Notes: generated by a model not told the origin, from the sequence alone. A DNA stretch of 64,000 bases from Eubacteriales bacterium (GCA_045655185.1 JAZOOS010000034.1:8493-72492); one strand, 5' to 3'; shown: positions 960 through 41,528, numbered from the stretch's first letter. Program-made: numbers and translations.

Positions 960-971
960 GATATTTTGTCC

Positions 972-1643: not shown

Positions 1644-1657
1644 AAGAGGATCCCTCC

Positions 1658-2227
1658 TTATTTATGGTTGTAGCCCAATTCAAAGGCGGCAAGATTCAGC
1701 TCCAAGAACTTCGGGGGAACCGTTTCTCTTATCACACGGAGAAACACTTCCTTATCGATCTCGGAAGCGGCGGCCAAAACGCCGATAAGCACGACGTTTA
1801 CCGCCTTCGGGGAGCCGACCGAAAGGCTTAACGCCGTCGCGTCGATCGCCGTTACATCACAAAGAGACGAAAGCGCTTCAACGATCCCTTCGGGATATTC
1901 GGCCGCCCCCGTGATGACAGGCATCGGGGAGATAGCGTGATCGTTAAGAATGATCTTTCCGCCTTTTTTGAGGTAGGGAAGGGCGCGCAGCGCTTCCAGC
2001 CGCTCAAAGGCCAGAATGATATCGGCCTCCCCCTTATCGATGATGGGGGAATTGACCTTTTCGCCGTAGCGAACGTAGGTAACAACGCTTCCGCCCCGCT
2101 GGCTCATTCCGTGAACCTCGGAGACCTTGACGTCATACCCCTCGCTGATAACGGCGTTTCCAAGAATGCGGCTGGCAAGCAGGGTGCCCTGCCCACCGAC
2201 GCCGACGATCATAATATTCTTCGTCAT
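1658..2227 (-). CDS. iorB: indolepyruvate:ferredoxin oxidoreductase subunit beta
   Basis: MTKNIMIVGVGGQGTLLASRILG N-terminus. The ATG at 2227 lies 1 nt after the iorA TAA stop, with an AGGAGG inside the iorA 3' end. The longer track ORF start would overlap iorA. Confidence 0.85.
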   Translation of the reverse strand: MTKNIMIVGVGGQGTLLASRILGNAVISEGYDVKVSEVHGMSQRGGSVVTYVRYGEKVNSPIIDKGEADIILAFERLEALRALPYLKKGGKIILNDHAISPMPVITGAAEYPEGIVEALSSLCDVTAIDATALSLSVGSPKAVNVVLIGVLAAASEIDKEVFLRVIRETVPPKFLELNLAAFELGYNHK

Positions 2228-2228
2228 C

Positions 2229-3965: not shown

Positions 3966-3979
3966 ATTTTCGTTACTCC

Positions 3980-5614
3980 TTACAGCTCGTTTTCTTTTGC
4001 CACAAGCCCGTCAACGCTATAAAGCTTGCGAAGCTTCGGCTTTTCGATCTTGCCCGTGGGGTTACGGGGAACCTCGGCAAAAATAACCTTGCGGGGGCGT
4101 TTGTAGCGGGGCAGGTCAAGACAGAAGCCCATAACCTGTTCCTCGGTGAGGGTATGACCCTCTTTTACCTGTACGATCGCGGCCGAGATCTCGCCAAGAC
4201 GGCGGTCGGGAAGCCCGATGACCGCAACGTCCGAGATCGAATCGTGGCGGCGCAGATAATCCTCGATCTGCACGGGGTAAATGTTTTCACCGCCCGAAAT
4301 GATCACGTCCTTCTTTCGGTCAACGAGGTAGATAAAGCCGTCCTTATCCTCGGTGGCCATATCGCCGGTAAAGAGCCAGCCGTCCTCTAAAATTTCGCGG
4401 GTGGCCTCTTCGTCCTTGTAATAGCAGGTCATCACGCCGTCACCCTTGACCGCCAGCTCTCCGACCTCTCCTCTTTCAACGGGGCGTCGATGCTCGTCAA
4501 CGATCATGGTCTGCCAGCCGTAGCCCGCTTTTCCGATCGCGCCCACACGGTCGATGTTCTCGATGCCGAGATGCACGCAGCCGGGGCCAATCGATTCGCT
4601 AAGGCCGTAGTTGGTGTCGTAATCGTGCTTGGGGAAAATCGCTTTCCAACGGCGGATCAGACTGGGAGGAACCGGTTGAGCGCCGATATGCATCAGCCGC
4701 CAAGCGGAGAGATCGTATTTCGAAAGATCAATATCCCCGCGGTCGATTGCGTCGAGAATATCCTGCGCCCACGGCACCAAAAGCCAGACGATGCTGCAAT
4801 TTTCCTCGGCGGCCGCTTTAATGATCCACTCGGGCTCGGTTCCCTTTAAAAGAACCGCCTTGCCGCCGACCATCAGGCTGCCGAACCAGTGCATTTTGGC
4901 GCCGGTGTGATAAAGCGGTGGGATGCAAAGAAAAACGTCGTCCTTGGTTTGACCGTGGTGGTTTTGCTCCACTCTTGCGGCGTGCATAAGGCTTCTGTGC
5001 TTATGTAGGATCGCCTTCGGGAAGCCGGTCGTGCCCGAGGAGAAATAGATTGCGGCGTCATCGTCGTCGCAAAGCGAGATCTTCGGCGTATGCGAAGAGC
5101 AGTAGGTGACCAGCTTATCGTAGCTTTCGGCGTAAGCGGGGCAATCCTCGCCCGCATAGATCCACATTTTAATCGCCCGTACCTTGTGGCAGATGCTTTC
5201 CACACGTCCGACGAATTCGGGCCCGAAAACGATGTATTCGGCGTCTGCTTTATCAAGGCAATACGCAATCTCCTCGGCCGTATAGCGGAAATTCAGCGGG
5301 ACGGCGATTGCCCCCGCCTTTAAGATCCCGAAATAAATCGGCAGCCATTCAAGGCAGTTCATCAAAAGGATCGCGACCTTCTCTCCCTTTTTGATCCCGC
5401 GGGACAAAAGCAAGTTCGCAAAGCGGTTGGCGTGCTTCTGGAATTCCTTCCAAGTCAGCTCGTGCCGATAGGATTCGGCCGCCGTTGCTTGCATCAGGGA
5501 AAATTCGCGCCAGGTCATGTTCTTGTTGTTTTCAAGCTTGGGGTTGATCTCTACCAAACTAACGTCGTTTGGGTAGAAATCCGCGTTTTTGGTAAGAATG
5601 TCGGTAATGGGCAT
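3980..5614 (-). CDS. AMP-dependent acyl-CoA synthetase/ligase (class I adenylate-forming)
   Basis: 544 aa. Motifs FSSGTTGFPKAILHKH, YGLSE, TGD and a GKIxK tail. First gene of the ior operon. Confidence 0.85.
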   Translation of the reverse strand: MPITDILTKNADFYPNDVSLVEINPKLENNKNMTWREFSLMQATAAESYRHELTWKEFQKHANRFANLLLSRGIKKGEKVAILLMNCLEWLPIYFGILKAGAIAVPLNFRYTAEEIAYCLDKADAEYIVFGPEFVGRVESICHKVRAIKMWIYAGEDCPAYAESYDKLVTYCSSHTPKISLCDDDDAAIYFSSGTTGFPKAILHKHRSLMHAARVEQNHHGQTKDDVFLCIPPLYHTGAKMHWFGSLMVGGKAVLLKGTEPEWIIKAAAEENCSIVWLLVPWAQDILDAIDRGDIDLSKYDLSAWRLMHIGAQPVPPSLIRRWKAIFPKHDYDTNYGLSESIGPGCVHLGIENIDRVGAIGKAGYGWQTMIVDEHRRPVERGEVGELAVKGDGVMTCYYKDEEATREILEDGWLFTGDMATEDKDGFIYLVDRKKDVIISGGENIYPVQIEDYLRRHDSISDVAVIGLPDRRLGEISAAIVQVKEGHTLTEEQVMGFCLDLPRYKRPRKVIFAEVPRNPTGKIEKPKLRKLYSVDGLVAKENEL

Positions 5615-9163: not shown

Positions 9164-10879
9164 ATGTTAAAACGCTTTTTATCCTATTATAAGCCGCACA
9201 AAAGGCTCTTTGCGGCCGATATGATCGCCTCTCTTTTGGTGGCGCTTACCGCCATTCTGTACCCGATGATCACACGGCGGATGCTCAACGATCTTATCCC
9301 AGGTCAGAAATATAAGCTGATCGTTCTTTTCGGTCTGCTTTTACTGTTGGTATACGTCGTTCGTATGCTTCTCAACTTTTTTATCCAGTATTACGGGCAT
9401 ATTATGGGCGTGCGTATGCAGGCCAAGATGCGAAGCGATATGTTCGGGCATCTTGAAAAGCTGCCGTATAGGTTTTTCGATAATAACGAGACCGGTAAGA
9501 TCATGTCCCGCATGACGAACGATCTGATGGATATCAGTGAGCTTGCGCACCACGGCCCCGAAAACATTCTGATATCGGGTATTTCGATCGTTATTTCCTT
9601 TACTTATCTGGCTACGATCCGCTGGGAGCTGACGCTGATCGTCTTTATTTGCGCCCCGATCCTTGCCGTTATTGCCGCTTCGCTTCGCAAAAGAATGAAG
9701 GAAGCATTTATGGAAAGCCGCAAATCGGTCGCCGTGATCAACGCTTCCTTGGAAAGCAGCATCACGGGGATCCGTGTCACCAAGGCCTTTAACAACGAAA
9801 CGGTAGAAGAAGAGAAGTTTGAGGAAGGAAACCGTTCCTTCGTGGCCTCGCGCAAAAAGGCCTATAACGCCATGGCCAAGTTTCACTCGTCCACGACCTT
9901 CGTTGCCGATATCTTTAACGTTATCGTTCTGATCGCCGGGGGGCTTTTCCTCTACAACGGCCTCATTAATTTTGCTGATTATTCGGCCTTCGTGGTCTCG
10001 GTGAATCTGTTTATTTCGCCCTTGATGACGCTGATCAACTTTATGGAGCAGTATCAGAACGGTGTTACCGGCTTCCGCCGCTTTATTGAAATTATGGACG
10101 AGCCGCCCGAGCAAAATCGAGAGGGCGCGCGCGATGCGGGGACGCTTATGGGGAAGATCGAATTTTCCTCTGTCACCTACGGCTACGGGGAAGAGGGAGA
10201 CGTTTTGAAAGATGTCAGCTTCACCGTGGAGAAGGGGAAGACCTTTGCTCTCGTCGGCCCTTCGGGGGGCGGTAAGACCACGATCTGCCATCTCATTCCG
10301 CGTTTTTATGACGTGGAGAGGGGCAAAATTCTGATCGACGGCGTGGATATTGCCGACTTTACGCGCGATTCGCTTCGCAAAAATATCGGTATCGTACAGC
10401 AGGACGTATACCTCTTTAACGCCAGTATCCGTGACAACATTCTCTATGGTAGACCCGAAGCGACCGAGGAAGAGGTGATCGAGGCGGCGAAGAAGGCGAA
10501 TATTCATGAGTACGTGATGGCGCTTGAAAAGGGCTATGATACCGAGATCGGCGAGCGCGGCGTGAAGCTTTCGGGCGGGCAGAAGCAGCGCTTATCTATC
10601 GCCCGCGTTTTTCTGAAGAATCCCCCGATCCTGATCCTTGATGAAGCGACGAGTGCCCTCGATAACGCCACCGAGATCTATATCCAGCAAGCGCTTGACG
10701 AGCTTTGCCGCGGCCGCACGACCTTGGTCGTCGCGCACCGTCTTTCCACCGTAAAGAACGCCGATGAGATCGCCGTTGTGGAAAACGGAAGCATCACCGA
10801 GCTGGGGGATCACGGAACCCTTCTTGAAAAGGGCGGCGTTTACGCCGGTCTTTATAACATGCAATTTAAGACCCGATAA
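9164..10879 (+). CDS. ABC transporter, fused permease and ATP-binding protein (MsbA/multidrug exporter type)
   Basis: Six-TM N-terminal domain. Walker A GPSGGGKTT, signature LSGGQKQR and Walker B ILILDEATSALD. The ATG at 9164 follows a GGAGG. Confidence 0.9.
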   Translation: MLKRFLSYYKPHKRLFAADMIASLLVALTAILYPMITRRMLNDLIPGQKYKLIVLFGLLLLLVYVVRMLLNFFIQYYGHIMGVRMQAKMRSDMFGHLEKLPYRFFDNNETGKIMSRMTNDLMDISELAHHGPENILISGISIVISFTYLATIRWELTLIVFICAPILAVIAASLRKRMKEAFMESRKSVAVINASLESSITGIRVTKAFNNETVEEEKFEEGNRSFVASRKKAYNAMAKFHSSTTFVADIFNVIVLIAGGLFLYNGLINFADYSAFVVSVNLFISPLMTLINFMEQYQNGVTGFRRFIEIMDEPPEQNREGARDAGTLMGKIEFSSVTYGYGEEGDVLKDVSFTVEKGKTFALVGPSGGGKTTICHLIPRFYDVERGKILIDGVDIADFTRDSLRKNIGIVQQDVYLFNASIRDNILYGRPEATEEEVIEAAKKANIHEYVMALEKGYDTEIGERGVKLSGGQKQRLSIARVFLKNPPILILDEATSALDNATEIYIQQALDELCRGRTTLVVAHRLSTVKNADEIAVVENGSITELGDHGTLLEKGGVYAGLYNMQFKTR

Positions 10880-27996: not shown

Positions 27997-29382
27997 TTAT
28001 TTTATTTTCTTCCTTTTGAAGATCCGGCTTCTGAAAAGAATGACGTTCATAACGGCAAAGAAAAGAGCGAATATGATAAGCGTCAGAACCGGCTTTGTGG
28101 GGGCGAGCGTAGCGAGAAACATCATGGGGAAGCCAAAAACAATGGCCGGGAAATTTTGATACACCATATTATCCGATGCGGGCGTTTTAAAGTCGCTATC
28201 GATCTCTCGAAGAAGAATAATACCCGTGCTTGCCGTTCCCGTCAGCATCCCGTACATGGTAAGGAACTGCTCCTCCGCATAATCGGGGAAGAGGGTCTTG
28301 GCGATCAGGCGATTGTAAACGTATGTGATGATGGCGCCAACCACCCCAAGAATCAGAATAACGCCCCAATAGTTTTCAAGAATATCAAGACGGATGGCCG
28401 CAATTCCCGCAACGACCATAATATCAAAGAAGAAATTGCTGGTGCGCGTCATAAGGAAATTGTTTGTGTACTTCTTTTGGATGATCCCTTTCTTGCGAAG
28501 GAAATTCAAAAGAACCTTGATCAACGTGGCCGTCAAAACACCGATTAAGAAATTGAAGCCGTAAATCACCGATTTCATTCCGGGCAAAAGCGATCCGAGC
28601 GCAAACATCACAAGGTATGCAGCCACGTAAGCGACAACGATCAAGGCGATCTGAACGGTCATTTTGTCAATGCTTTCCTGCATGGGAATTTCATTGGCAG
28701 AATCAATTTGATCGGTGTGAAGGCTTCCGTCCGAACGGTTGGATAGGACAAGCTTTCCGCGTCTTTTCATAATGTTCAAATGAATGACACCGACGATGCT
28801 TGCGGATAAGAATCCAAGGGCGGCAATCGTAAGACCAAAGCTTTTTCCACCCACAAATCCGTACTCGTTTTCATAGATCGTGCCGTAGTTAAGCGCCTGC
28901 CCGGTGCCTTGCCCGTAGCCAAACGGCAAAAGAACGCCGGCGGCGGTGAAAAAGTCTTGTATAACCAAGGCGGTGATCATCGTTATCAAAAGGCCGACTA
29001 TGCCTTGTATCAAATAAGTGGAAACCGTTGTTACGCCCGTGTTAAAGATTTCCTTTGTCCGTTGTTTGGTCAGCTTTCCGCCCGTCGTTTTGAAAGCGGA
29101 AGCAATAAAGCCAAGCGCCAACGTATGATACGTAATAATTTCAAGATTTCCCATACCGTTTCCGCCAAAAACGGCCGTCTCAAACATCACATCACCGGTA
29201 ATGGATTTATATACGTCAGAAATGATCAAGAGGATCACACCGCCAAGCACCGAGGTCGGTATCAAAGAATTTTGCAAAAGCGGAATGCTCTTTTTTAAGA
29301 CGTTCCCGACCAAGAGGCTGCCCAGCAAAACGCCAAAGAGCAGGATCGATCCCCATACACTATAATCCCAAAAATTTTCCAT
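27997..29382 (-). CDS. GltS-like sodium/glutamate symporter family protein
   Basis: 461-aa polytopic protein whose layout resembles GltS, including GYGQGTGQA. A GGAGGGG RBS is present. Confidence 0.5.
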   Translation of the reverse strand: MENFWDYSVWGSILLFGVLLGSLLVGNVLKKSIPLLQNSLIPTSVLGGVILLIISDVYKSITGDVMFETAVFGGNGMGNLEIITYHTLALGFIASAFKTTGGKLTKQRTKEIFNTGVTTVSTYLIQGIVGLLITMITALVIQDFFTAAGVLLPFGYGQGTGQALNYGTIYENEYGFVGGKSFGLTIAALGFLSASIVGVIHLNIMKRRGKLVLSNRSDGSLHTDQIDSANEIPMQESIDKMTVQIALIVVAYVAAYLVMFALGSLLPGMKSVIYGFNFLIGVLTATLIKVLLNFLRKKGIIQKKYTNNFLMTRTSNFFFDIMVVAGIAAIRLDILENYWGVILILGVVGAIITYVYNRLIAKTLFPDYAEEQFLTMYGMLTGTASTGIILLREIDSDFKTPASDNMVYQNFPAIVFGFPMMFLATLAPTKPVLTLIIFALFFAVMNVILFRSRIFKRKKIK

Positions 29383-30580
29383 TTTCCCCTCCGTTTATTA
29401 TGTTGCGATAGCGGAAAAAGAAGTTTACGTATTTAAGCGCGTTAAATTTCTTTTCACCCTTTATTTGATATATCGAGCCACCGAAATACAGATTGAGCTT
29501 GTTCCGTCCGAGAACCGTCGCCGCCGTTAATTCATCAAAGGTGAATTTATACGTCGTATTACCGATCGCGCGGATCTCGATCCGATCCTTGTATAAAAGC
29601 AATTCAGCCTTCTTGTGAAGGACCTTTTTCTTTTTATAAACGATAACCTCGGATATTTTGGCTACATCCCGATAGATCGGCTCTTCGCCAAGCTGTAAAA
29701 GGTCCAGCCCGTTTACAAAATCCTTTTGATAGTCATACCAGTCGGCTACAAAGCGATAGGGAAAATCAAATCCCACACCGCGCAGCTCCTTCGTCGGTAA
29801 ATATTCGATCCTTCTCTTGCATTTTTTGCATTCAAGGATCGCATGATGGCTTTCAAAAGAAGAAAGGCCGCAATAAGGACACACGTAGATGGCTCTTTCC
29901 AAATGCTCCGCCGGGCGCTTATGATGAAATTCGCCGGTGATGGCGGCTTCATTGACGTATAGCTCACGGCTTATGATCCCAAGCAGCTCCTCGTCCGAAA
30001 GCGCTTGAAATTTTTCGGGCTCAAGCACGCTTGAAACATATCCTCTCATATGGCCTTTTCGTACCGCATCACTCCATCTCGGTTGGACGCCATAACCCCC
30101 CTCAATACGGTAAAGCGCAATAGGCAGATTCAATTTTCTTGCAAGCGGCACAATGGACGGATTGATATATTCGGTCCTTCCGCTGTAAGTGCGGTTTCCC
30201 TCGGGGGCGATGGCGATCGTACCGCCTTCTTTCGCCACCTTGATGCAATTCAAGACCGCTTTTACATCGGTCGTTTGCTTCCGGATGGGGATCGGCGCAA
30301 CCAAAAACCGAATCAGCGACGATAGGATCCCGTTTGAAAAAATATCTTCGGTCGCAAGATAGTAAACGGCGCCCTTGAAGGACATACCGACAAAGAATTG
30401 ATCAAACGGTGTCTGGTGGTTCATTAAGATCAGATACGGGCCCTTCTTTTGCTCCTTGAATTTCTCTACCTTGATACCGTATCTGTATCTGGCATACGGG
30501 GTCAACACAAAGGAGAGAAGATTCCTTATAAACCGATGCCGTTTCCTTATCCATTTTTTGCTTTTTCGCTTTTCTTTCAT
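29360..30580 (-). CDS. lysophospholipid (PlsC-type) acyltransferase with a C-terminal extension containing a zinc-ribbon-like motif
   Basis: HxxxxD motif NHQTPFD and an APEGNRT block. The C-terminal half carries CPYCG...CKKCKRR. Confidence 0.7.
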   Translation of the reverse strand: MKEKRKSKKWIRKRHRFIRNLLSFVLTPYARYRYGIKVEKFKEQKKGPYLILMNHQTPFDQFFVGMSFKGAVYYLATEDIFSNGILSSLIRFLVAPIPIRKQTTDVKAVLNCIKVAKEGGTIAIAPEGNRTYSGRTEYINPSIVPLARKLNLPIALYRIEGGYGVQPRWSDAVRKGHMRGYVSSVLEPEKFQALSDEELLGIISRELYVNEAAITGEFHHKRPAEHLERAIYVCPYCGLSSFESHHAILECKKCKRRIEYLPTKELRGVGFDFPYRFVADWYDYQKDFVNGLDLLQLGEEPIYRDVAKISEVIVYKKKKVLHKKAELLLYKDRIEIRAIGNTTYKFTFDELTAATVLGRNKLNLYFGGSIYQIKGEKKFNALKYVNFFFRYRNIINGGENGKFLGL

Positions 30581-30610: not shown

Positions 30611-32314
30611 TTAATCAATACTCATATCGAGCTTAAAGCGCATGATCTTACGCAGGGTATTTTTGGGGAAATCCTCACCGCGCACTTTAAGCACGCCTAT
30701 TTTTTTGTAGGGAACTGCGGTTTTATTGTATTCGTTCACGAAGCCTTGCAGATAGGCTTTTACATCGGTGATTTCGTTTTTCTCGATGTATTCCTTATCG
30801 GGAAAGATTTCGGCAACGATCGCGTTATGCTCCATGCCGCGGCGGCTTTTTCCCTCGTATACGATGATATCCTGCACACCGGGGACCGAGATCAGCTCGT
30901 TTTCAATTTCCTCGGGGTAAACGTTCTTCCCGTTAGAGAGAATGATAAGGTTTTTCTTTCGGCCGGTGATATAAAGGATTTTATCCTTGGTGAGCTTGCC
31001 GTAATCACCGGTCTTGAAATAGCCGTTCTCATCTATGGCTTCGGCCGTTGCTTCCTCGTTTTTGTAGTACCCAAGCATAACGTTGGGGCCTTTTACGTAG
31101 ATTTCCCCCTCGCCGTCCTCGTTGGCGTCAACGATCTTGACGTCGTCAATATCCACCACCGCGCCGACGCTTCCTTTTACAACGTTGCGGCTTCTGTTAA
31201 AGGAAATGATCGGGGAGCACTCGGTGATCCCGTACCCGTTAAGCACGGAAATTCCGATCCCCTCAAAGAACGAAATGATATCTTGATTGATGGGCGCGCC
31301 GCCCGTTACGATCATTTTGATCTCACCGCCAAAAGCGTTTCGTATCTGCGCGAAGAGCTTTTTCCTCATATCAATAAGGCCGAAGCTTACTTTTTTGGCG
31401 GCGTTGCTGATTTTCAGCATATCATGCACAAGCTTATCCTTGCCTTGGTTTTTAAGGTTGGCTTGGATTCTGCGGTAGAAGGTTTCAAGATACAGGGGAA
31501 CCAGGACAAGATGCCCCGGCTTTTCGGATTTTAATTCCTTTTGTATGTACTTGATCCCGTCGGATATATATACCTCGGTTCCGATCATTACGTGGGCAAT
31601 CAGCATAGTCGATGAGCCGTACGTATGGTGCGGGGGCAAAACCGAAACCGTATTTTCCGCAAAATCGACGTACGGCGTAACGACTTCCATATCGCGGATA
31701 AGCGAATCGGTGCAGAGCATAACGCCCTTTCCCTTGCCGGTGGTTCCCGAGGTATACACGAGAAGCGAAAGCTGTCTTGGATCAAACTGTACGTCAAAAT
31801 AGGGCCGTTTGTCCTCCGAAAATTTAATACGGCCCGCCGCGATCATGGCTTGCAGGCTTGCATCCCCTTGGGCGCCAAGATAGACAACGGGTGCTTCAAG
31901 CGCGCACAGCGCGGCAATCTCCCGCCCCTTTTCCGAAAGATCTCCATCGCAGAAGAGGTAATCCATATCCGCGTTTTTGGCGGTATCGGCAAGCTCGGCC
32001 GCCCCCCAATCTTTATCCAGGGGAACCAGAACCGCCCCGATGAGAAGCGTGGCGTAATAGGCTGTGATAAAATCATAGGACATTTTTCCCACAACGACGA
32101 TATGCTTCCCCTTCATACCGCGAGAAAGCATCTCGGTTGCAAGCGCCCGAACGTCATCCCGAAACTCAATATAGCTTATGCTTATTTTTTCCTCATCGTG
32201 GGGGTTTTGCCTATAAGAAAAGGCAATGCGGTTGCCGTATACGCGCGCGGCATATTCAACGATATGGCGTATGCTCTTAAATTCTCTTTTAGGGTGTATC
32301 TGTTCTTTTTTCAT
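30611..32314 (-). CDS. AMP-dependent long-chain acyl-CoA/ACP synthetase
   Basis: 567 aa with motifs YTSGTTGKGKGVML, YGITE and TGD. Confidence 0.85.
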   Translation of the reverse strand: MKKEQIHPKREFKSIRHIVEYAARVYGNRIAFSYRQNPHDEEKISISYIEFRDDVRALATEMLSRGMKGKHIVVVGKMSYDFITAYYATLLIGAVLVPLDKDWGAAELADTAKNADMDYLFCDGDLSEKGREIAALCALEAPVVYLGAQGDASLQAMIAAGRIKFSEDKRPYFDVQFDPRQLSLLVYTSGTTGKGKGVMLCTDSLIRDMEVVTPYVDFAENTVSVLPPHHTYGSSTMLIAHVMIGTEVYISDGIKYIQKELKSEKPGHLVLVPLYLETFYRRIQANLKNQGKDKLVHDMLKISNAAKKVSFGLIDMRKKLFAQIRNAFGGEIKMIVTGGAPINQDIISFFEGIGISVLNGYGITECSPIISFNRSRNVVKGSVGAVVDIDDVKIVDANEDGEGEIYVKGPNVMLGYYKNEEATAEAIDENGYFKTGDYGKLTKDKILYITGRKKNLIILSNGKNVYPEEIENELISVPGVQDIIVYEGKSRRGMEHNAIVAEIFPDKEYIEKNEITDVKAYLQGFVNEYNKTAVPYKKIGVLKVRGEDFPKNTLRKIMRFKLDMSID

Positions 32315-34710: not shown

Positions 34711-35484
34711 TCAATCAAACGCCAATCCAAGATAGGCGGGCGGCGGGGCGCTTGAATCTTGCAAGGGGCAATACATAGCGAACGGCTTTTCCCCCAGGGG
34801 GGCGCGAAAGCACCCTTCGGTACAGCCGAGCGACCGTAGGATGAAGGGGGCCTTGGCGGAATCCCCCAAAAGCTCGATGCCGTGAAGGTGCTCGTCCTCT
34901 TTTTTTGCTGCCAGCAAAAAGCCGTCTCCCGTATAAAAAGAGGCTTCGGTATGCAGAAAGCGTATGCTTTCTTTTCCTTGCACGATGCCGCCCCTTGGCA
35001 AAAAGGCTTTTCGCAGCGTTTCGTATTCTTTCTCATCGATCTTTTGGATCGGTACGCCCTCTTTTTCGGCGGAGCAACAAAATTCATGAACCGTGCCGCA
35101 TACCGAATACCCCATTTTTTCGTAGAACGCAAAAAGAGAGGGGGTGCCCGGCACCAGAACGGCGCCGGTATAGCCAAGCGTTGCCAGATGCCGATGCGTA
35201 TTTTCCATTAAAGCGGTGCAGATCCCACGCCCCCGATAGGCTTTTGCCGTTGCGATGGCGTAGAGATACGCAACACGCCCCCCTTCGTATGCGCCGTTAA
35301 ACCAATACAGCGCGGCGGCGGGGGTATCACAGTCGAATACAGCGCGGCATCGGTCGGGCGAAAAGGCGACCTCGAAGAAGCGGTCGAGAAACGCTTCGCT
35401 ATCCCCGAAGGCCTCGCGCCACAGAGCCCGAAGGGCGGGGATATGGATAAGGGCGGGCGTATCAATCTTCATGTTTATCCTCAC
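34711..35484 (-). CDS. GNAT family acetyltransferase with a C-terminal extension
   Basis: 257 aa with AIATAKAYRGRGICTALM (GNAT motif A). Overlaps the upstream DUF2156 gene by 23 nt. Confidence 0.7.
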   Translation of the reverse strand: MRINMKIDTPALIHIPALRALWREAFGDSEAFLDRFFEVAFSPDRCRAVFDCDTPAAALYWFNGAYEGGRVAYLYAIATAKAYRGRGICTALMENTHRHLATLGYTGAVLVPGTPSLFAFYEKMGYSVCGTVHEFCCSAEKEGVPIQKIDEKEYETLRKAFLPRGGIVQGKESIRFLHTEASFYTGDGFLLAAKKEDEHLHGIELLGDSAKAPFILRSLGCTEGCFRAPLGEKPFAMYCPLQDSSAPPPAYLGLAFD

Positions 35485-36397
35485 ATAAAAAAGCGCGGTA
35501 TTTTTCGGTCATGTGGTGGGGATGGTAGCTTTGCTTCGCCCTTCGCAGCCCCGCAAGCCCCATATCCTCCTCGCGATCCAAATAGCGGATATCGGGATAC
35601 TTGCTTTGAATATAGCGCGCGAATTCAAAGTTAATGGCCGCATACGCCCCTTGAATATCGGGGCGCGCCTTTTCAAAATGCACGTCGAAGGTATCGAAGG
35701 ATAAGCGGCTGCCCATTGTAAAGGCGAGTACTTCCTTTCCGTTAAGGAGTAAAAGCCCGTCCAGCTTCAGCGCGCGATATTCCCGAAATGCCCTTTCGAG
35801 AGCTTCTTCTTCCATACGGTAATCGGCATCGGGGTTTTCCAAAAGGCGCGTTTGATACCAGTCCCTCGCCATTTCCTTTGCCAAAAAAAGATTTCTTTCG
35901 TCAAGCGGGGCAACGGTATAAGCGGGGAAGGCCTCTCGAAAGCGGTTTAGGTGATTGCGCTTTCCGTGGTATTTTTTGCCCGGCAGATCAGCAAGATCAT
36001 CGATCGAATAGACGTAATCAAAAGAGCCTTCGTTCCGCTGAAAAAGGAATTTTTCGGGATAAAGCGATTCAAGCGTTTCCTTGGCCTTTTGGCTAAGGCC
36101 GGTGATACAGCAGGGGATTCCCCTTTCCGCAGCGTCGGCAAGGATCGCGTCAAGCACCGCTTTTTTGTCACCGCTTCCTAAGGGATAGGGGTAAACGAAG
36201 CGGTTGCCGAATTGCGAAAACAGCAGAATATGGCCGTGCAAGGCGGCAAGGCTTTGCCGCCCCCAGCAATATAGGTTGGCAAACGAGAATTCGCATCCGC
36301 GCCCCTCTTCGTTGAAAAGATAACGCTCATACAGCTCTTTGCTTTCGGGGGTGATGGGGGTAAAATCTATTTTTGTTAGCAGCTTCGTTCCGATCAT
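35462..36397 (-). CDS. DUF2156-like protein (resembles the C-terminal domain of phosphatidylglycerol lysyltransferase)
   Basis: 311 aa, soluble. Contains FSFANLYCW and GKKYHGKRNHLNRF blocks typical of the MprF C-terminal domain family. Confidence 0.6.
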   Translation of the reverse strand: MIGTKLLTKIDFTPITPESKELYERYLFNEEGRGCEFSFANLYCWGRQSLAALHGHILLFSQFGNRFVYPYPLGSGDKKAVLDAILADAAERGIPCCITGLSQKAKETLESLYPEKFLFQRNEGSFDYVYSIDDLADLPGKKYHGKRNHLNRFREAFPAYTVAPLDERNLFLAKEMARDWYQTRLLENPDADYRMEEEALERAFREYRALKLDGLLLLNGKEVLAFTMGSRLSFDTFDVHFEKARPDIQGAYAAINFEFARYIQSKYPDIRYLDREEDMGLAGLRRAKQSYHPHHMTEKYRAFLCEDKHED

Positions 36398-36554: not shown

Positions 36555-37217
36555 TTATTGAAAGGACGGCGCGTGGGTTTCCCCATTTGCAAAGGCGTTG
36601 GGGCCGGGATCGGAGAGCGAAAAATACATTTTGGCCGCCTTGGTCGTGCCGAAGTCGCGGTTAGAGCCACTGTTTTGAACCTTATTAAAGGCGTCGCGGA
36701 ACATCTGGTTGTGCGCTTCCTCGCGGTTAAGAAGAAAATCAATGGTTTCCCGTACCTTTTTATCCTCGATCTGGCGGTAGAGATACTCGTAAACCACCTT
36801 CGCCCGTTGCTCGGAGGCGATGTTGGAAAGAAGATCGGCGCAAAGATCCCCCGTTACGGTGACGTAATCCCCCGTCCAGGAATAACCCGAGGAATTGATA
36901 AGGCCGGGGTTCAGCCCAAGCAAAACGTGGGTTTGCACCTCGCCCGCCCCGATCTTCGTGACGTCTACGTCATGACCGTTCAAAAGATTGATGGTCTGCG
37001 CCACCATTTCCATGTGCGAAAGCTCTTCGGCGGCAATATCAAGGAAGAGATCCTTGATCTCGGGATCCTTGATCCGAAAGCTCTGCGACATATACTGCAT
37101 CGCGGCCTTCAACTCGCCGTTTCCGCCGCCAAGCTGCTCCTGCAAAAGAACCGCGTACTGCGGGTTCGGCCCTTCGATCTCTACGGGATGGAATAACTGT
37201 TTTTCGTGTTTGAACAT
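36555..37217 (-). CDS. manganese catalase family protein (CotJC-like)
   Basis: GELKAAMQYMSQSF and AEELSHMEMV di-metal motifs. Confidence 0.85.
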   Translation of the reverse strand: MFKHEKQLFHPVEIEGPNPQYAVLLQEQLGGGNGELKAAMQYMSQSFRIKDPEIKDLFLDIAAEELSHMEMVAQTINLLNGHDVDVTKIGAGEVQTHVLLGLNPGLINSSGYSWTGDYVTVTGDLCADLLSNIASEQRAKVVYEYLYRQIEDKKVRETIDFLLNREEAHNQMFRDAFNKVQNSGSNRDFGTTKAAKMYFSLSDPGPNAFANGETHAPSFQ

Positions 37218-37313: not shown

Positions 37314-37342
37314 TTGACAAACCGACCTTCGTATGCTAAAAT
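37314..37342 (+). promoter_or_regulatory. sigma-A promoter of the T-box operon
   Basis: TTGACA, 17-nt spacer, TAAAAT. Confidence 0.6.
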
Positions 37343-37349
37343 GCTTACA

Positions 37350-37617
37350 TCACAAACGCAATGATGCGGAATAGTATGCAAAAATCCCCGCTTATAGAGA
37401 AATGCCGGTCGGTGCAAGGCATAGGGGGGCTCTTGCTGAACTCACCGCGGAGCGGCTGTTATGAAAAAAGTAGTGACAGACGGGTACTCCCGTAATAGAG
37501 TTACGGTGTGTCGGCATCGAAAGGGCATCCCTTTTGGGATGAAGAAGAGTGGTACCGCGGAAACAACGTTTTGCGTTTTCGTCTCTTTGCTGGAAGAAGA
37601 GATGAAAACGTTTTTTT
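37350..37617 (+). promoter_or_regulatory. T-box riboswitch leader, leucine specifier (CUC)
   Basis: Stem I carries AAUGAUG (K-turn), an AGUA S-turn, the AGAGA box (37396-37400) and a GGUGCAA distal loop. The specifier-loop 3' side reads GAA-CUC-A, with the codon at 37441-37443. The T-box sequence GUGGUACCGCGG lies at 37549-37560. The terminator is CGTTTTCGTCTCTT / AAGAGATGAAAACG followed by T7 (37574-37617). Confidence 0.8.
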
Positions 37618-37644
37618 GTTTATAGCTTGAAAGGGGTTAAAAAT

Positions 37645-39030
37645 ATGAAAAAGATCCAGATTGCAGACGTTACGCTGAAAAAGCTTTCGGGGGACCGTGC
37701 GGTTTCGCTCTTGTTCCGCGAAAAATCCGCCATCGCGAATTACGCGGATAAGCTGGGGGCTGACGTTTTTGAGCTTCCGCCCGTAAAAAACGCGCGGGAG
37801 GATGCGATCGTCTATAAGACCATCGCCAAAAATCTGCAAAACGCGATCCTTTCTGTTCCCGTCGGGTTCAGCGCCGCGGGGGTCGAGGAGGCTTTTGCTT
37901 GCATTAAGGAAGCTAAGCACCCCCGCCTTCGGATCGAGCTTCCCGTATCGACCATCCAAATGGAATATACCTATCACGTCAAGCAAGCCAAAATGCTTGA
38001 AGCTATCGCTTCGCTCACCAAGGCCGCCAAGGCTCTTTGCGCCGACGTTGAATTCACTGCGCTTGACGCTACGCGCGCCGATCTTGATTTTCTGATCGCC
38101 GCCGTCAAGGAGGCCGAAGCAAACGGCGCGACCTCTGTAACCGTATGCGACGATGCGGGCACCGCGACGCCCGAGGAGATCGCTTCGTTGGTCGGGGCGG
38201 TGAAGGGGGCTGTCTCTTTGCCCCTTTCGGTACAGGTATCCAACCGTATCCATATGGCCGTGGCTTCGGCGCTTTCCGCCATTGCGGCGGGGGCTGACGG
38301 CCTTAAATGCGCCATGGCGGGGAAGGATGCCCTGCTTTCGGGCGAGCTTTCGGATGCGATGAACGTTTGCGGCGCCGCGATCGGCGCCATGATCGGCCTT
38401 GATAACACCAAGATCCACGCCGGTATTGCGGATATGCTTTCGGGTATCCACCACGAACAAGCCAAGGAAGAAGCCGTAAACGAAGCAAACAGCCTTCTGC
38501 TGGATGCCGACGCCACGCTCTCGCAGGTGGCCGAGGCTGCCGCCCTTATGGGGTACGAGCTTTCGGATTCGGATATCGGAAACGTGTTGAAGGCGCTTCG
38601 TGGGGTATGCGAAAAGAAGGGCACGGTCGGCGCCAAGGAATTCGAGGCTCTTATCGCAAGCTCGGCTATGCAAGCGCCCTCTACCTATCATTTTGAAAGC
38701 TACACCACGACGAGCAGTAACCTCTCCAGCGCGATGACCCGGATCAGCCTCAGCTGCAACGGCGAAAGCATGTGCGGCGTCAGCGCGGGGGACGGCCCGA
38801 TCGATTCGGCCTTCCGCGCGATCGAGCAATGCGTCGGTCATCACTATGAGCTTGACGATTATCAGGTACAGTCGGTCACCGAGGGGAAGGAAGCCTTGGG
38901 CTCGGCCCTCGTCCGTCTTCGCTATAACGGTAAGCTTTATTCGGGAAACGGTACCTCCACCGATATCGTGGCGGCCAGTATCCGTGCGTATATCAACGCA
39001 TTGAATAAGATCGTGTTCGAGGAGGGCTGA
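37645..39030 (+). CDS. LeuA (2-isopropylmalate synthase)-like protein lacking catalytic residues but retaining the LeuA C-terminal regulatory domain
   Basis: Collinear with short-form LeuA. However, TLRDGEQ is replaced by TLKKLSGD, HCHNDLG by QVSNRIH, and SAEDATR by TALDATR. The C-terminus keeps GDGPIDSAF...GNGTSTDIVAASIRAYINALNKI. The ATG at 37645 follows GAAAGGGG; the track ORF starts at a TTG at 37627. Confidence 0.75.
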   Translation: MKKIQIADVTLKKLSGDRAVSLLFREKSAIANYADKLGADVFELPPVKNAREDAIVYKTIAKNLQNAILSVPVGFSAAGVEEAFACIKEAKHPRLRIELPVSTIQMEYTYHVKQAKMLEAIASLTKAAKALCADVEFTALDATRADLDFLIAAVKEAEANGATSVTVCDDAGTATPEEIASLVGAVKGAVSLPLSVQVSNRIHMAVASALSAIAAGADGLKCAMAGKDALLSGELSDAMNVCGAAIGAMIGLDNTKIHAGIADMLSGIHHEQAKEEAVNEANSLLLDADATLSQVAEAAALMGYELSDSDIGNVLKALRGVCEKKGTVGAKEFEALIASSAMQAPSTYHFESYTTTSSNLSSAMTRISLSCNGESMCGVSAGDGPIDSAFRAIEQCVGHHYELDDYQVQSVTEGKEALGSALVRLRYNGKLYSGNGTSTDIVAASIRAYINALNKIVFEEG

Positions 39031-39031
39031 T

Positions 39032-41494
39032 ATGAAGATCGTATTTTCGACGAAGAACGTAAGCCGATCTTCCTTTCTCGATACCTGCCGCTTAGCTTAT
39101 GAATACGGCTTTTCGGGCTTCGAAATTTACGATGCCGTAAAGGAAAGAGCCGCCCATAACGATAGCGTTTTACGGCGTGACCGCACGGCCGATGCCCGCC
39201 GCAAGCTCGTCAACCGCAATCTTGCGGTAGCGGCGCTTCGTATGCCCATAGCGTTGGAAAACGAGGCGTGCGAAGGAGACCTCGTGGCGAAATACGTCGA
39301 TATGGCGGCTTCCTCGGGTACGCCTTATGTGATCGTTCATCTTGGAAAGAGCGCTTCCTTTGATCTGTTGGATCAAAAGCTTACGGCGGCGATCAAGCGC
39401 GCCGAGGCCTGTGACGTTGGTATCCTTTTCGAAACGGTAGGCGCCCTTTCGCATACCGAAAGGGTCATTGAGATCATCAATCATTTCGCTTCCGCCGCGA
39501 TCGGCGCCGCTTGGAACGTGCGCGCCACCTATTTTTCGGCAGGGGAGACCGCCGAGGCAACCATCAAGACGCTCGGCGCTTATATCAAATACGTGCGCCT
39601 TGGCGATATGAAGGACGGGAAAACCGTTCTGATCGGGGAAGGGGATCTTCCGGTAGAGAAGCTTCTCAACGCGCTTTCTTCCTTGAATTACGAGGGCTAT
39701 ATCTGCGCCGCGTGGAACGAGGAGATCGAGGACGCCGATATCGTTTTGACTCATTTTTCCAACTATCTTTCTTCCTTGAAGCGTGAGAAAAAGAGCTTTG
39801 AGCACGGGTATTACAACCGCCAAAAAACCGGCACCTTCGTTTGGAAGAAGTATGACGTGATCGAGGCCACCTTCTCGGACGTTTTGGATACGATGGCAAA
39901 AACCTATCCCGACCAGTACGCCTTTAAGTATCCGACCCTCGATTATACGAGGACCTACGCGCAGTTCCGCCGTGATGTAGACGAATGCGCCGCCGCGCTT
40001 ATTTCGCTGGGCGTAAAGGCCGGGGACCACGTAGCCGTGTGGGCGACCAACGTGCCCGAATGGTTTATCACCTTCTGGGCCACCACCAAGATCGGCGCGG
40101 TTTTGGTTACCGTTAATACCGCTTATAAGATCCACGAGATCGAGTATCTTTTGAAGCAATCGGATACCCATACGCTGGTTCTTATCGAGTATTGCAAGGA
40201 CATCAATTATAAAGAAATTATCGAAGAGCTGTGCCCCGAGCTGAAGAGCCTTGAGCCCGGTAAGCCGCTTTATTCGAAGAATCTGCCCTTTTTGCGTAAC
40301 GTTGTTACCGTCGGCTTTTCGATGGACGGCTGTTTGACGTACGAAGAAATGCTCTCGCGCGCTTCGCTCGTTCCGCGTGAGGAGGTGCGGCGTCGTGCTT
40401 CCTTGGTTCGCCCCGACGACGTATGCAATATGCAGTATACCTCGGGTACCACGGGCTTCCCGAAGGGGGTCATGCTGACCCACCGCAACATCGTCAACAA
40501 CGGCAAGACCATCGGTGACCGTATGGATCTTTCCACCGCCGACCGTATGATGATCCAGGTTCCGATGTTCCATTGCTTCGGCATGGTGCTTTCGATGACC
40601 TCGATGATGACCCACGGCGGCACGCTTTGCCCCATTCCGTACTTTTCCCCGAAATCCTCGCTGGCTTGCGTAAACGATGAAAGGATCACCTGCTTCAACG
40701 GGGTTCCCACCATGTTTATCGCGATGTTCGGCCACGCCGATTTTCAGAAGACTGATTTTTCGCATATGCGTACCGGCATTATGGCGGGGGCAAACTGCCC
40801 GCCCGATCTGATGCGCCGCGCCGCCGAGGAGATGAATATGCGTGAGATCATTTCGGTATACGGGCAGACCGAGGCCTCCCCCGGCTGTACGATGGGCGAG
40901 GTCAACGAGGATCTTGACCACCGTGTTGAAACGGTTGGCAGCGCCTTCCCCGGGGTGGAATGTAAGATCATCGACCCCGAAACCGGAAACGAGCTTCCCG
41001 ACGGAGAAAGCGGCGAGTTCGTAGCCCGCGGCTTCAACATCATGAAGGGCTATTATAAGATGCCCGAGGCGACCGCCCAAGCGATCGACGCCGACGGCTG
41101 GCTTCATTCGGGGGATATCTGCATGCGTACGCCCGATGGCTATTATAAGGTCACAGGGCGCCTTAAAGACATGATCATTCGCGGTGGAGAGAACCTTTAC
41201 CCCCGTGAGATCGAGGAGTTTTACCTCACCAATCCCAAGGTGCGCGACGTACAGGTCGTCGGTGTGCCCGACGAGCGCTACGGCGAAGAGTGCTGTGCTT
41301 GGATCATTCTTCATAAGGGTGAAGTGGCCGATGAAGCCGAAATGCGTGATTTCGGAAATGCCTCGATCGCACGGCATAAGGTACCGAAATACTTTATGTT
41401 CGTTGAGGAGTTTCCGATGAATGCGGCCGGTAAGATCTTGAAATACAAGATGCGTGAGATCGCGGCTGAAAAGCTGGGGCTTAAAACCAAATAA
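39032..41494 (+). CDS. fusion protein: xylose-isomerase-like TIM barrel (N-terminal, about 250 aa) plus AMP-forming acyl-CoA ligase (C-terminal, about 550 aa)
   Basis: The N-terminal region has a sugar-phosphate isomerase/epimerase-like pattern. The C-terminal region has YTSGTTGFPKGVMLTH, YGQTE, SGD and a GKILK tail. The start lies 1 nt after the upstream stop. Confidence 0.8.
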   Translation: MKIVFSTKNVSRSSFLDTCRLAYEYGFSGFEIYDAVKERAAHNDSVLRRDRTADARRKLVNRNLAVAALRMPIALENEACEGDLVAKYVDMAASSGTPYVIVHLGKSASFDLLDQKLTAAIKRAEACDVGILFETVGALSHTERVIEIINHFASAAIGAAWNVRATYFSAGETAEATIKTLGAYIKYVRLGDMKDGKTVLIGEGDLPVEKLLNALSSLNYEGYICAAWNEEIEDADIVLTHFSNYLSSLKREKKSFEHGYYNRQKTGTFVWKKYDVIEATFSDVLDTMAKTYPDQYAFKYPTLDYTRTYAQFRRDVDECAAALISLGVKAGDHVAVWATNVPEWFITFWATTKIGAVLVTVNTAYKIHEIEYLLKQSDTHTLVLIEYCKDINYKEIIEELCPELKSLEPGKPLYSKNLPFLRNVVTVGFSMDGCLTYEEMLSRASLVPREEVRRRASLVRPDDVCNMQYTSGTTGFPKGVMLTHRNIVNNGKTIGDRMDLSTADRMMIQVPMFHCFGMVLSMTSMMTHGGTLCPIPYFSPKSSLACVNDERITCFNGVPTMFIAMFGHADFQKTDFSHMRTGIMAGANCPPDLMRRAAEEMNMREIISVYGQTEASPGCTMGEVNEDLDHRVETVGSAFPGVECKIIDPETGNELPDGESGEFVARGFNIMKGYYKMPEATAQAIDADGWLHSGDICMRTPDGYYKVTGRLKDMIIRGGENLYPREIEEFYLTNPKVRDVQVVGVPDERYGEECCAWIILHKGEVADEAEMRDFGNASIARHKVPKYFMFVEEFPMNAAGKILKYKMREIAAEKLGLKTK

Positions 41495-41501
41495 AAAAAT
41501 A

Positions 41502-41528
41502 AAAAAGGCTGACCGCGTCAGCCTTTTT
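41502..41528. terminator. bidirectional terminator between the T-box operon and pyk
   Basis: AAAAAGGCTGAC-CGC-GTCAGCCTTTTT. Confidence 0.65.

Follow-up and report, generated by a model that had tools for sequence, protein, structure and literature searches.

The locus described here lies in a window of 64 kb (the whole stretch of DNA that was analysed, 64,000 nucleotides). It comprises a promoter, a T-box leader and an intrinsic terminator, followed by two coupled genes, ORF1 and ORF2. The features identified are as follows (evidence in brackets).

37314..37342, plus strand: sigma-70-type promoter, TTGACA-17 nt-TAAAAT with a TG extension (sequence read; 11/12 matches)
37352..37589, plus strand: T-box leader with Stem I, Stem III region, T-box core and antiterminator (RF00230)
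37441..37443, plus strand: specifier CUC (Leu) (RF00230 alignment, sequence, Stem I fold)
37547..37559, plus strand: T-box core GAGUGGUACCGCG (RF00230 alignment, sequence)
37573..37618, plus strand: intrinsic terminator of the leader, a 16-bp stem (37573-37611) and a U-run (terminator search, folding)
37645..39030, plus strand: ORF1, LeuA paralog of 461 aa (Pfam, alignment, AlphaFold2, Foldseek)
39019..39034, plus strand: coupling junction GAGGAGGGC-TGA-T-ATG, i.e. ribosome-binding site, stop, one base, start (sequence)
39032..41494, plus strand: ORF2, fusion protein of 820 aa (ORF, Pfam)
39032..39811, plus strand: N-terminal xylose-isomerase-like TIM barrel of ORF2, approximately aa 1-260 (PF01261, motif comparison)
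39860..41494, plus strand: AMP-forming acyl-CoA ligase domain of ORF2, approximately aa 277-820 (Pfam, PRK12583, motifs)
41502..41528, no strand assigned: bidirectional terminator closing the operon (terminator search)

A convergent pyruvate kinase gene is located beyond the last of these elements.

The leader matched the T-box covariance model RF00230 over its full length (1-219 of 219), scoring 125.5 bits where the gathering threshold is 93 (E 2.1e-27). In the specifier loop, GAA-CUC-A-CCGC (37438-37448), the CUC triplet is followed by the conserved purine A37444 and then by the CCGC basal helix, while the UGGU of the T-box core would base-pair with the tRNA's ACCA end. The terminator has a predicted folding energy of -21.1 kcal/mol (z -5.4; none of 200 shuffled sequences was equally stable), and shares sequence with the antiterminator (its own 5' arm with the 3' arm of the latter), so that the two helices are mutually exclusive. 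In T-box systems, uncharged cognate tRNA stabilises the antiterminator, which results in read-through. By this established mechanism, the CUC specifier is predicted to read tRNA-Leu and the operon to be switched on by leucine starvation.

A preliminary description of this DNA had proposed a consensus promoter, a complete T-box leader with a Leu specifier and translational coupling of the two genes (TGA-T-ATG), and all three proposals were borne out. The promoter is near-consensus, the CUC specifier stands after structural alignment, and the sequence of the junction places the ribosome-binding site of ORF2 (GAGGAGGGC) inside the end of ORF1.

The LeuA-like protein and the ligase fusion

The listed reading frame of ORF1 begins with TTG at 37627, but the ATG at 37645, preceded by GAAAGGGG, is the likelier start. 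The encoded protein is composed of an HMGL-like TIM barrel (PF00682, 101 bits, profile positions 1-222 of 260), a shortened linker subdomain and a conserved regulatory domain (LeuA_dimer, PF08502, 108 bits). The best Foldseek matches of its AlphaFold2 model (pLDDT 87) were methylthioalkylmalate synthase and LeuA/IPMS structures. The best NCBIfam model, NF002086, reached 238.7 bits, which is below the cutoff for the LeuA equivalog (532).

Alignment with LeuA revealed the loss of metal-binding and catalytic motifs, in agreement with the earlier claim of a catalytically dead LeuA homolog. The TLRDGEQ motif, whose equivalent segment is hypervariable across the ORF1 family, is replaced by TLKKLSG, with both the R and D ligands gone; HxH is replaced by Q197-x-S199, the catalytic Glu of AEDATR is gone (L in the window protein), NGxGERAGN is lost, and a deletion of approximately 35 aa in subdomain I removes HxSGIHQDG. 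Residues that do not vary within the family are concentrated in the regulatory domain (G382, G384, G419, D440 and N454, with D387 nearly invariant), and G419 aligns with G462 of Escherichia coli LeuA, the residue altered in the leuA(G462D) allele, which serves to abolish feedback inhibition (PMC6345581). From this pattern we infer that ORF1 is a pseudoenzyme, in which LeuA chemistry has been lost and the leucine-regulatory domain retained.

The N-terminal barrel of ORF2 matched AP_endonuc_2 (PF01261) with 54.9-58 bits (gathering threshold 31.1) and gave weak matches only, MJ1311 and AsbF, among PDB structures. Metal-ligand positions, assigned by eye on a profile alignment, showed that the canonical ligands (E...D..H...H.H..D...E) are largely replaced (FET / WNVRAT / YVRLGD / CAAW in the clade of the window protein), and different clades keep different subsets of them. 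The structure model of the fusion had a pLDDT of 48.

The ligase domain was recognised by both AMP-binding (322.6 bits) and AMP-binding_C (56.4 bits). Its ANL core motifs A3, A5, A7 and A8 and the A10 lysine are intact; the corresponding segments, YTSGTTGFPKG (469-479), YGQTE (610-614), SGD (693-695), GRLKDMIIRGGEN (709-721) and GK801, are invariant in the family alignment. The nearest curated ANL subfamily is PRK12583 ('fatty acid CoA ligase family'; 675 bits, below the cutoff of 832), no equivalog was reached, and this proximity says nothing on the chain specificity of ORF2. The ligase domain is the sole intact catalytic module in the operon. PF00682, PF08502, PF01261 and PF00501 were thus all found in the two proteins, as expected from the TIM-barrel/ligase fusion and the LeuA homolog described previously.

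Distribution of the gene pair and its genomic context

In each of the 80 related loci compared, from gut Clostridia genomes, the fusion gene immediately follows the LeuA-like gene, and the specifier CUC occupied the same position in 76 of the 77 readable orthologous leaders. Adjacency of the two genes, often with a 4-nt overlap, holds in relatives with 27-48% identity, and a Leu T-box precedes the pair also at 32-48% identity (L083, L089, L091). Orthologous pairs are thus nearly always accompanied by a Leu T-box. T-boxes were absent from the distant relatives L081, L084, L085, L087 and L055; in the last of these the pair is accompanied by a LysR-type regulator. No fused (Rosetta-stone) form of the LeuA-like protein and the ligase was seen among the loci compared.

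Accessory genes occur at a number of loci: Amidohydro_2 immediately follows the fusion in 38, a MaoC-like hotdog gene is located inside or adjoining the operon in approximately 13, and an ACT-MBL gene in 6. None of them occurs in this window, and many loci lack them.

In distant relatives (27-48% identity) the pair adjoins genes of a VOR-type 2-oxoacid:ferredoxin oxidoreductase. The order in L083 is VOR delta/alpha/beta/gamma, IlvE, Leu T-box and then the pair (VorB 546 bits, cutoff 399; IlvE 470 bits, cutoff 307). The arrangement in L081 and L091 is similar, and the IlvE-type aminotransferase gene lies beside the pair in two VOR-bearing loci (L083 and L091). Within the 64-kb window neither a VOR nor an IlvE gene was found; the window encodes an IOR-type oxidoreductase of the aromatic-type family, and an iorAB-paaK cluster, with a small ACT-domain gene next to the PaaK-like ligase, lies at 6-5614.

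Neighbouring sibling units comprised 32 Ile (AUC) and 14 Val (GUA) T-boxes located before HTH-cupin ligases. The best model for these ligases was MbcS, a 2-methylbutyrate/isobutyrate-CoA synthetase (PMC10026030). In related loci, 13 Phe (UUC) T-boxes precede pairs of a PaaK-like ligase and an ACT protein. The Ile, Val and Phe units repeat the same logic as the Leu unit.

A possible route from isovalerate to leucine

Leucine synthesis from isovalerate was recognised in rumen physiology 60 years ago. We propose, with a probability of roughly 0.55, that leucine starvation induces an isovalerate-CoA ligase feeding reductive carboxylation to leucine, with the dead LeuA as a leucine-sensing regulatory subunit. 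Uncharged tRNA-Leu would favour the antiterminator and hence read-through into both coupled genes; the ORF2 ligase would convert isovalerate (3-methylbutyrate) into isovaleryl-CoA; reductive carboxylation of this thioester by a VOR-type 2-oxoacid:ferredoxin oxidoreductase, whose genes would lie elsewhere, would yield 2-oxoisocaproate; and a branched-chain aminotransferase would complete the synthesis of leucine. ORF1 probably binds the ligase, perhaps via the degenerate N-terminal TIM barrel, and would impose feedback inhibition by leucine on it. The pathway would thus be controlled twice, by tRNA charging at the RNA level and by free leucine at the protein level.

Isovalerate is the substrate predicted from the regulation and gene context alone, and the ORF1-ORF2 complex with its leucine allostery is putative; HisZ plays the corresponding part for histidine. 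A role of ORF1 as a leucine-sensing partner would be consistent with what is conserved in the protein (a dead barrel combined with an invariant regulatory domain) and with the strict pairing. The VOR and IlvE neighbours, the sibling T-box units and the IOR in the window provide independent support for the proposed isovalerate-to-leucine route. Points against the proposal are the accessory genes (Amidohydro_2, MaoC-like, ACT-MBL), which have no role in such a simple model, the lack of VOR and IlvE genes in this window, where the IOR is of the aromatic-type family, the distant relatives devoid of a T-box, and the lack of a fused form among the loci compared. If the proposal is true, the operon supplies the missing genes for the rumen isovalerate-to-leucine pathway, and gut bacteria make leucine out of a fermentation acid.

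The pathway branches at isovaleryl-CoA, and in classical rumen labelling isovalerate carbon was recovered in leucine and in lipids, which speaks for another, though unlikely, explanation. The ligase might, in the manner of MbcS in Staphylococcus aureus, supply isovaleryl-CoA mainly to prime the synthesis of iso-odd branched-chain fatty acids, so that when leucine is scarce external isovalerate is used and leucine is not degraded. Primers of this kind are provided by MbcS-type ligases (PMC10026030, PMC11167679), and the sibling ligases at related loci match the MbcS model best. However, the location of the pair beside VOR and branched-chain aminotransferase genes in L083 and L091 points to an amino-acid fate, no lipid primer corresponds to the Phe T-box/PaaK-ACT units, and a leucine-binding partner would be most sensible with leucine as the end product.

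A further, still less probable view is that both degenerate TIM barrels have been repurposed rather than inactivated and, together with the accessory genes, constitute a novel pathway of several steps to a leucine precursor, with further transformation of the ligase product as a CoA ester. This would account for the Amidohydro_2, MaoC-like and ACT-MBL genes, and some residues of the LeuA-like barrel are indeed still conserved in the family (S102 invariant; D141, R144 and D169 nearly so). Nevertheless, the absence of the accessory genes from this window and many loci indicates that they are not core components, the segments of the LeuA-like barrel that correspond to the former active site are hypervariable, and the metal-ligand positions of the xylose-isomerase-like barrel vary by clade, which would not be expected for a conserved active site.

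Least probable is that the ligase acts on another leucine-related acid (e.g. 4-methylvalerate, 2-hydroxyisocaproate or 3-methylcrotonate), or that it is an acyl-CoA synthetase of general short/medium-chain range which merely happens to be under a Leu T-box. Chain length is not assignable from the ORF2 sequence, and enoyl- or hydroxyacyl-CoA substrates would be in keeping with the MaoC-like neighbours. However, VOR chemistry requires an acyl-CoA one carbon shorter than the 2-oxoacid (isovaleryl-CoA in the case of leucine), the occurrence of one ligase per amino acid (Leu, Ile, Val, Phe) speaks for a specific, matching substrate in each case, and the unusual conservation of the ligase domain (approximately 87% identity, where ORF1 shows approximately 74%) suggests a narrow, constrained function.

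Comparison with known systems

We found no published description of a T-box/pseudo-LeuA/ligase-fusion system in the literature. The leader has its counterparts in the T-box operons for leucine supply of Firmicutes (leuS, ilv-leu), with which it shares the riboswitch class, the CUC specifier logic and the terminator/antiterminator switch. The genes under its control are different, i.e. a pseudo-LeuA and an acyl-CoA ligase fusion instead of a synthetase, a leuABCD/ilv enzyme or a transporter.

ORF1 has the same fold and the same order of TIM barrel, linker and regulatory domain as LeuA of Mycobacterium tuberculosis (1SR9/3FIG) and Neisseria meningitidis (3RMJ), and keeps the regulatory-domain motifs, including the position of E. 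coli G462. Unlike LeuA, it is devoid of any metal-binding or catalytic motif, lacks approximately 35 aa in subdomain I and misses the curated models widely. In the HisZ-HisG(S) ATP-phosphoribosyltransferase, the regulatory subunit HisZ is a dead paralog of an enzyme of the same amino-acid system, which senses the end product for a different enzyme (PMC9734150). Only this concept is common to HisZ-HisG(S) and ORF1-ORF2; the folds and partners are unrelated, and the complex and allostery are putative in the present case.

MbcS and other short branched-chain acyl-CoA synthetases are, like ORF2, AMP-forming ligases, and act on branched short-chain acids supplied from outside (PMC10026030). Genes of the MbcS type adjoin the pair under Ile and Val T-boxes. 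Unlike MbcS, which feeds lipid synthesis, ORF2 falls into a different ANL subfamily (PRK12583 being the nearest); it has a TIM barrel at its N-terminus and forms a gene pair with a LeuA-like protein. To our knowledge, T-box control of MbcS is not known.

The iorAB-paaK clusters likewise place an acid-CoA ligase beside a small protein of an amino-acid-binding type and are tied to a 2-oxoacid:ferredoxin oxidoreductase. They differ from the pair in their ligase family (PaaK), sensor fold (ACT) and aromatic substrates. By analogy, the ACT proteins may play a HisZ-like role for the neighbouring PaaK-like ligases.

Leader, operon layout and products of the Leu operon

The promoter, the T-box leader with a CUC specifier and the two coupled genes claimed by the preliminary description were all confirmed in the region. 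The T-box model of Rfam (RF00230) matched positions 37352-37589 over its full length (125.5 bits against a gathering score of 93, E 2.1e-27), which was the sole riboswitch-type match in the 64-kb window, and the leader is typical of this family. Both the model alignment and the Stem I fold give GAA-CUC-A for the 3' side of the specifier loop, with the basal helix CCGC directly after it, and the specifier was therefore read as CUC (Leu), at 37441-37443. The remaining elements are as follows:

37314-37342, + strand: promoter-like site, TTGACA-17-TAAAAT with TG extension (11/12 matches)
37547-37559, + strand: T-box core, GAGUGGUACCGCG
37573-37618, + strand: 16-bp terminator with U-run (-21.1 kcal/mol, z -5.4)
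39032-41494, + strand: ORF2
41502-41528, both strands: bidirectional terminator between the Leu operon and the convergent pyruvate kinase gene

The 5' arm of the terminator is shared with the antiterminator. A Leu T-box with a terminator/antiterminator switch is thereby established as the leader type. ORF1 (the LeuA-like gene, 461 aa) most likely starts at ATG 37645, preceded by GAAAGGGG, the TTG start given by mechanical ORF listing being less likely, and ends at 39030. Its junction with ORF2 (820 aa, a xylose-isomerase-like TIM barrel fused to an AMP-forming acyl-CoA ligase) is GAGGAGGGC-TGA-T-ATG, and the two genes are coupled. There is very little doubt that the pair is under Leu T-box control. 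Another T-box-like motif, at position 7704 of the minus strand, proved to be a false positive falling within a fumarase gene.

The minus-strand gene divergent to the Leu operon promoter encodes a Mn-catalase-like protein (36555-37217). On the same strand, a GNAT acetyltransferase gene (34711-35484) overlaps that of a DUF2156/LPG_synthase_C protein (35462-36397).

By Pfam, ORF1 combines an HMGL-like barrel with a LeuA_dimer regulatory domain, and its score is far under those required by all curated LeuA models (238.7 bits vs 532). ORF1 was aligned with solved LeuA structures, with E. coli LeuA, and across 29 family members and true LeuAs. This bore out its earlier description as a catalytically dead LeuA homolog, since metal and catalytic motifs are replaced or deleted: (i) TLKKLSG stands in place of TLRDGEQ, a segment in which the family as a whole is hypervariable, (ii) HxH has become Q197-x-S199, (iii) AEDATR has lost its Glu, and NGxGERAGN is gone, and (iv) the HxSGIHQDG motif has been lost through a deletion of about 35 residues. 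ORF1 is thus incapable of LeuA chemistry. Its best conserved part is the C-terminal domain (GDGPID, HYELDD, VTEGxEAxG, STDI, NALNK), in which the family-invariant G419 aligns with G462 of E. coli LeuA; leuA(G462D) is the allele used for abolishing feedback inhibition (PMC6345581). The AlphaFold2 model (pLDDT 87) matched first methylthioalkylmalate synthase, next M. tuberculosis LeuA, including the leucine-bound form, and then other IPMS structures. The loss of catalytic motifs, the conserved regulatory domain and the LeuA-type model matches together make the view of ORF1 as a catalytically dead LeuA that has kept its leucine sensor well founded; ORF1 may itself bind leucine. Because the defining catalytic features fail despite the LeuA fold, the protein should not be filed as LeuA.

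ORF2 carries an intact adenylate-forming ligase. Beyond the N-terminal barrel (PF01261, 55-58 bits), the remainder of the protein is a complete ANL ligase (AMP-binding domain, 323 bits) with motifs A3, A5, A7, A8 and the A10 lysine invariant. Among curated models it comes closest to PRK12583 ('fatty acid CoA ligase family'; 675 bits vs a cutoff of 832), and within the ANL superfamily it falls into no curated subfamily. The possibility of an aminoacyl- or peptide-forming adenylating enzyme was ruled out, since carrier and condensation domains are lacking and the protein is matched best by fatty-acyl/aryl-CoA ligases. For the barrel, no NCBIfam match was found, and its PDB relatives are only weak (MJ1311, AsbF). 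The usual metal-ligand positions read FET / WNVRAT / YVRLGD / CAAW in the clade of the window, and distant clades retain other subsets; judging from these residues, conservation does not extend to the canonical metal site, and the barrel is unlikely to be an enzyme of the usual kind. The AlphaFold2 model of the 820-aa fusion reached a pLDDT of 48 from a shallow alignment (17 sequences, mostly more than 84% identical), too low to be of use.

Distribution of the pair and of its T-box

Close relatives of both proteins are very numerous in gut metagenomes and MAGs, where the only names given to them are 'hypothetical protein', 'AMP-binding protein', 'AMP-dependent synthetase' and the erroneous '2-isopropylmalate synthase'; related proteins in the databases number thousands. 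Scanning one genome per species gave 309 matching stretches. The best 80 of these 309 all come from uncultured Clostridia of ruminant and other guts, belonging to Acutalibacteraceae, Oscillospiraceae, Congzhengia, Ructibacterium and Egerieisoma, and in all 80 the fusion gene lies directly 3' of the LeuA-like gene. Across the loci, identity is about 87% for the ligase fusion and about 74% for the LeuA-like protein. Representatives at 50% identity revealed a broad LeuA-like family of 455-475 aa, extending down to about 27-30% identity, after which true LeuAs appear. In six of the eight distant members looked up (L081, L083, L085, L087, L089/L090 and L091; such handles denote related loci from other genomes, in their own coordinates), the fusion again comes next, and the two genes often overlap by 4 nt; in the other two (L084, L088) the contig end cuts the downstream gene off.

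Leaders were read by motif-anchored extraction, a plain MAFFT alignment of 78 leaders being too gappy. A T-box precedes the LeuA-like gene, or a MaoC-like gene in front of it, in 78 of 81 sources; the other three (L039, L042, L055) have none. The possibility, raised in the preliminary description, that orthologous pairs usually lack a Leu T-box is clearly contradicted, as 76 of the 77 readable specifiers are CUC. For the single CCC (L076, about 2014), either a genuine change or an assembly error may be the reason. Relatives at 32-48% identity (L083, L089, L091) likewise have a Leu T-box before the pair; other distant loci (L081, L084, L085, L087) have none. One T-box subtype (L018, L024, L062/L062b), with a GAAG/CUUC basal helix and CUC followed by C or A, was detected by motif and sequence reading; it scores below the Rfam gathering threshold, so that default annotation would miss it, and the specifier readings for L018, L024 and L062b are somewhat less secure. 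The pair is an evolutionary unit controlled by a Leu T-box.

Several loci show local peculiarities. In L055 a divergent LysR-type regulator (3012-3956, minus strand) is found instead of a T-box before the MaoC, ACT-MBL, LeuA-like and fusion genes. Upstream of the pair in L085, which has no T-box, there are two blocks of CUCCACU-type repeats together with CUGCCUA repeats (100-401), possibly another kind of leader. An Amidohydro_2/TatD-like gene (about 270 aa), apparently within the Leu operon, lies directly 3' of the fusion in 38 loci (L051, 9937-10761, and 37 others; L083 copy 9902-10705), and none occurs in the window. A 146-aa MaoC-like hotdog protein is inserted in or beside the operon in about 13 loci, and a 478-aa protein with ACT and metallo-beta-lactamase folds (ACT-MBL) in six. 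Such insertions were found at L024 1100-2999 and L062 5393-5914, where the MaoC-like gene is behind the Leu T-box, and 3' of the fusion in L020, L059, L060, L074 and L019.

Sibling ligase units, oxidoreductases and aminotransferases

T-boxes were also found before two other kinds of ligase gene. Forty-six precede HTH-cupin-AMP-ligase genes, whose best curated model (450 bits) is MbcS, the 2-methylbutyrate/isobutyrate-CoA synthetase of S. aureus (PMC10026030); 32 of them carry AUC (Ile) and 14 GUA (Val), the latter preceding a second paralog. Another 14 precede PaaK-like phenylacetate-CoA ligase genes (530 bits, TIGR02155), 13 of them with UUC (Phe); where checked, the ligase gene is followed by one for a 143-aa ACT-pair protein.

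Loci of the Acutalibacteraceae type carry two paralogous HTH-cupin-AMP-ligase genes (757 and 776 aa, best model MbcS) that are divergent to the Leu operon; an Ile (AUC) T-box precedes the first of them and a Val (GUA) T-box the other. This arrangement occurs in L009 (5291-5532 and about 2649, both minus strand), L012, L017, L021, L022, L025, L033, L034, L044, L047, L051, L064 and L065. Phe T-box/PaaK-ACT units are present in L062 (2921-5046), L003, L005, L019, L037, L049, L053, L059, L067, L074 and others. In L035 the specifier position before the PaaK-like gene reads UGC, not UUC.

The distant locus L083 has the gene order HTH-cupin ligase, CbiA-like gene, VOR delta/alpha/beta/gamma, IlvE, Leu T-box, LeuA-like, fusion, Amidohydro_2 (VorB 546 bits, cutoff 399; IlvE 470 bits, cutoff 307), and L081 and L091 are variants of it. 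In L089/L090 two HTH-cupin ligase genes follow the pair, the first behind an Ile T-box. The 220-aa CbiA/ParA-like gene is always 5' of the VOR delta gene (L081 2651-3313, L083 1377-2039, L091 10724-11386; the last copy, with no Pfam match on record, was assigned by size and position only).

A scan of the whole window detected no leuABCD, ilv or VOR genes, the only 2-oxoacid:ferredoxin oxidoreductase genes being those of an IOR (aromatic-type) cluster, at which no T-box was found:

6-5614, - strand: whole cluster
3980-5614, - strand: AMP-forming ligase
2229-3965, - strand: IorA (719 bits, cutoff 651)
1658-2350, - strand: IorB (278 bits, cutoff 230)
972-1643, - strand: 223-aa ORF, no family match
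6-944, - strand: PaaK-like ligase, cut by the window start

Elsewhere on the minus strand, the segment 27997-32314, with genes for a further AMP-binding protein (30611-32314) and an acyltransferase (29360-30580), together with a 461-aa ORF that matched no family (27997-29382), looks like a separate lipid/acylation module.

Proposed route and its relation to known systems

One amino-acid-specific starvation signal per acid-CoA ligase, beside a 2-oxoacid:ferredoxin oxidoreductase and a transaminase, is what would be predicted for a route from acid via acyl-CoA and 2-oxoacid to amino acid, in which leucine's acid would be isovalerate. The ligase of ORF2 would activate isovalerate, and a VOR-type enzyme would convert isovaleryl-CoA to 2-oxoisocaproate, the substrate of IlvE. 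We assign this salvage of isovalerate for leucine a probability of roughly 70%.

The acyl-CoA may instead chiefly prime branched-chain fatty acids, sparing leucine, and such priming and leucine salvage may both be true, side by side. The substrate may also be another leucine-related acid. Alternatively, the barrels may form a longer, new pathway with the accessory genes beside the pair (those for the Amidohydro_2, MaoC-like and ACT-MBL proteins). Leucine catabolism, with energy drawn from isovaleryl-CoA, was ruled out, because AMP-forming ligases run towards the thioester and the T-box is induced on leucine starvation.

Under the salvage reading, ORF1 would bind leucine and inhibit the ligase, the degenerate barrel of ORF2 being a possible docking module. 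We regard this sensor-subunit role as close to an even chance; it gains some weight because the sibling ligases have parallel partners (Phe, the ACT pair; Ile/Val, the fused cupin). More tentatively still, all these units might form an unrecognised T-box regulon by which gut and rumen Clostridia synthesise amino acids from fermentation acids. In it, Leu, Ile, Val and Phe T-boxes would govern dedicated acid-CoA ligases feeding ferredoxin-dependent reductive carboxylation, each with its own end-product sensor (Leu, a LeuA-derived pseudoenzyme; Ile and Val, a cupin; Phe, an ACT pair), and the Leu unit would be a new type of allosteric complex composed of a dead LeuA, a degenerate TIM barrel and an isovalerate-CoA ligase.

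It has been clear since the 1960s, from classical labelling, that the building of amino acids in rumen and gut anaerobes requires or draws on isovalerate, isobutyrate, 2-methylbutyrate and phenylacetate, and we know of no gene assignment in these organisms for the enzymes activating these acids or for their regulation. If correct, the proposal would name the leucine-specific activation step and its control, and would make this step widespread (309 stretches), with the Ile, Val and Phe units as its parallels. Metabolic models of fibre-degrading gut communities would also gain from it, and the benefit of feeding branched-chain volatile fatty acids to ruminants would become easier to explain. The practical interest is high, because an old physiological pathway becomes testable at the gene level.

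A full-text search of the open literature, which cannot prove absence, found no description of the pair, of T-box-controlled branched-chain acid ligases or of a LeuA-derived pseudoenzyme, and this system was likewise not found in the literature on isovalerate-CoA ligase, T-box with reductive carboxylation, PaaK with T-box, or inactive LeuA paralogs. The precedent for the sensor idea is HisZ, a catalytically dead paralog serving as regulatory subunit of ATP-phosphoribosyltransferase (PMC9734150); ORF1 would be the second clear case of a biosynthetic enzyme turned allosteric sensor subunit. The system as a whole relates to types already known, namely T-box operons for amino-acid supply, short-chain acyl-CoA synthetases and pseudoenzyme sensors.
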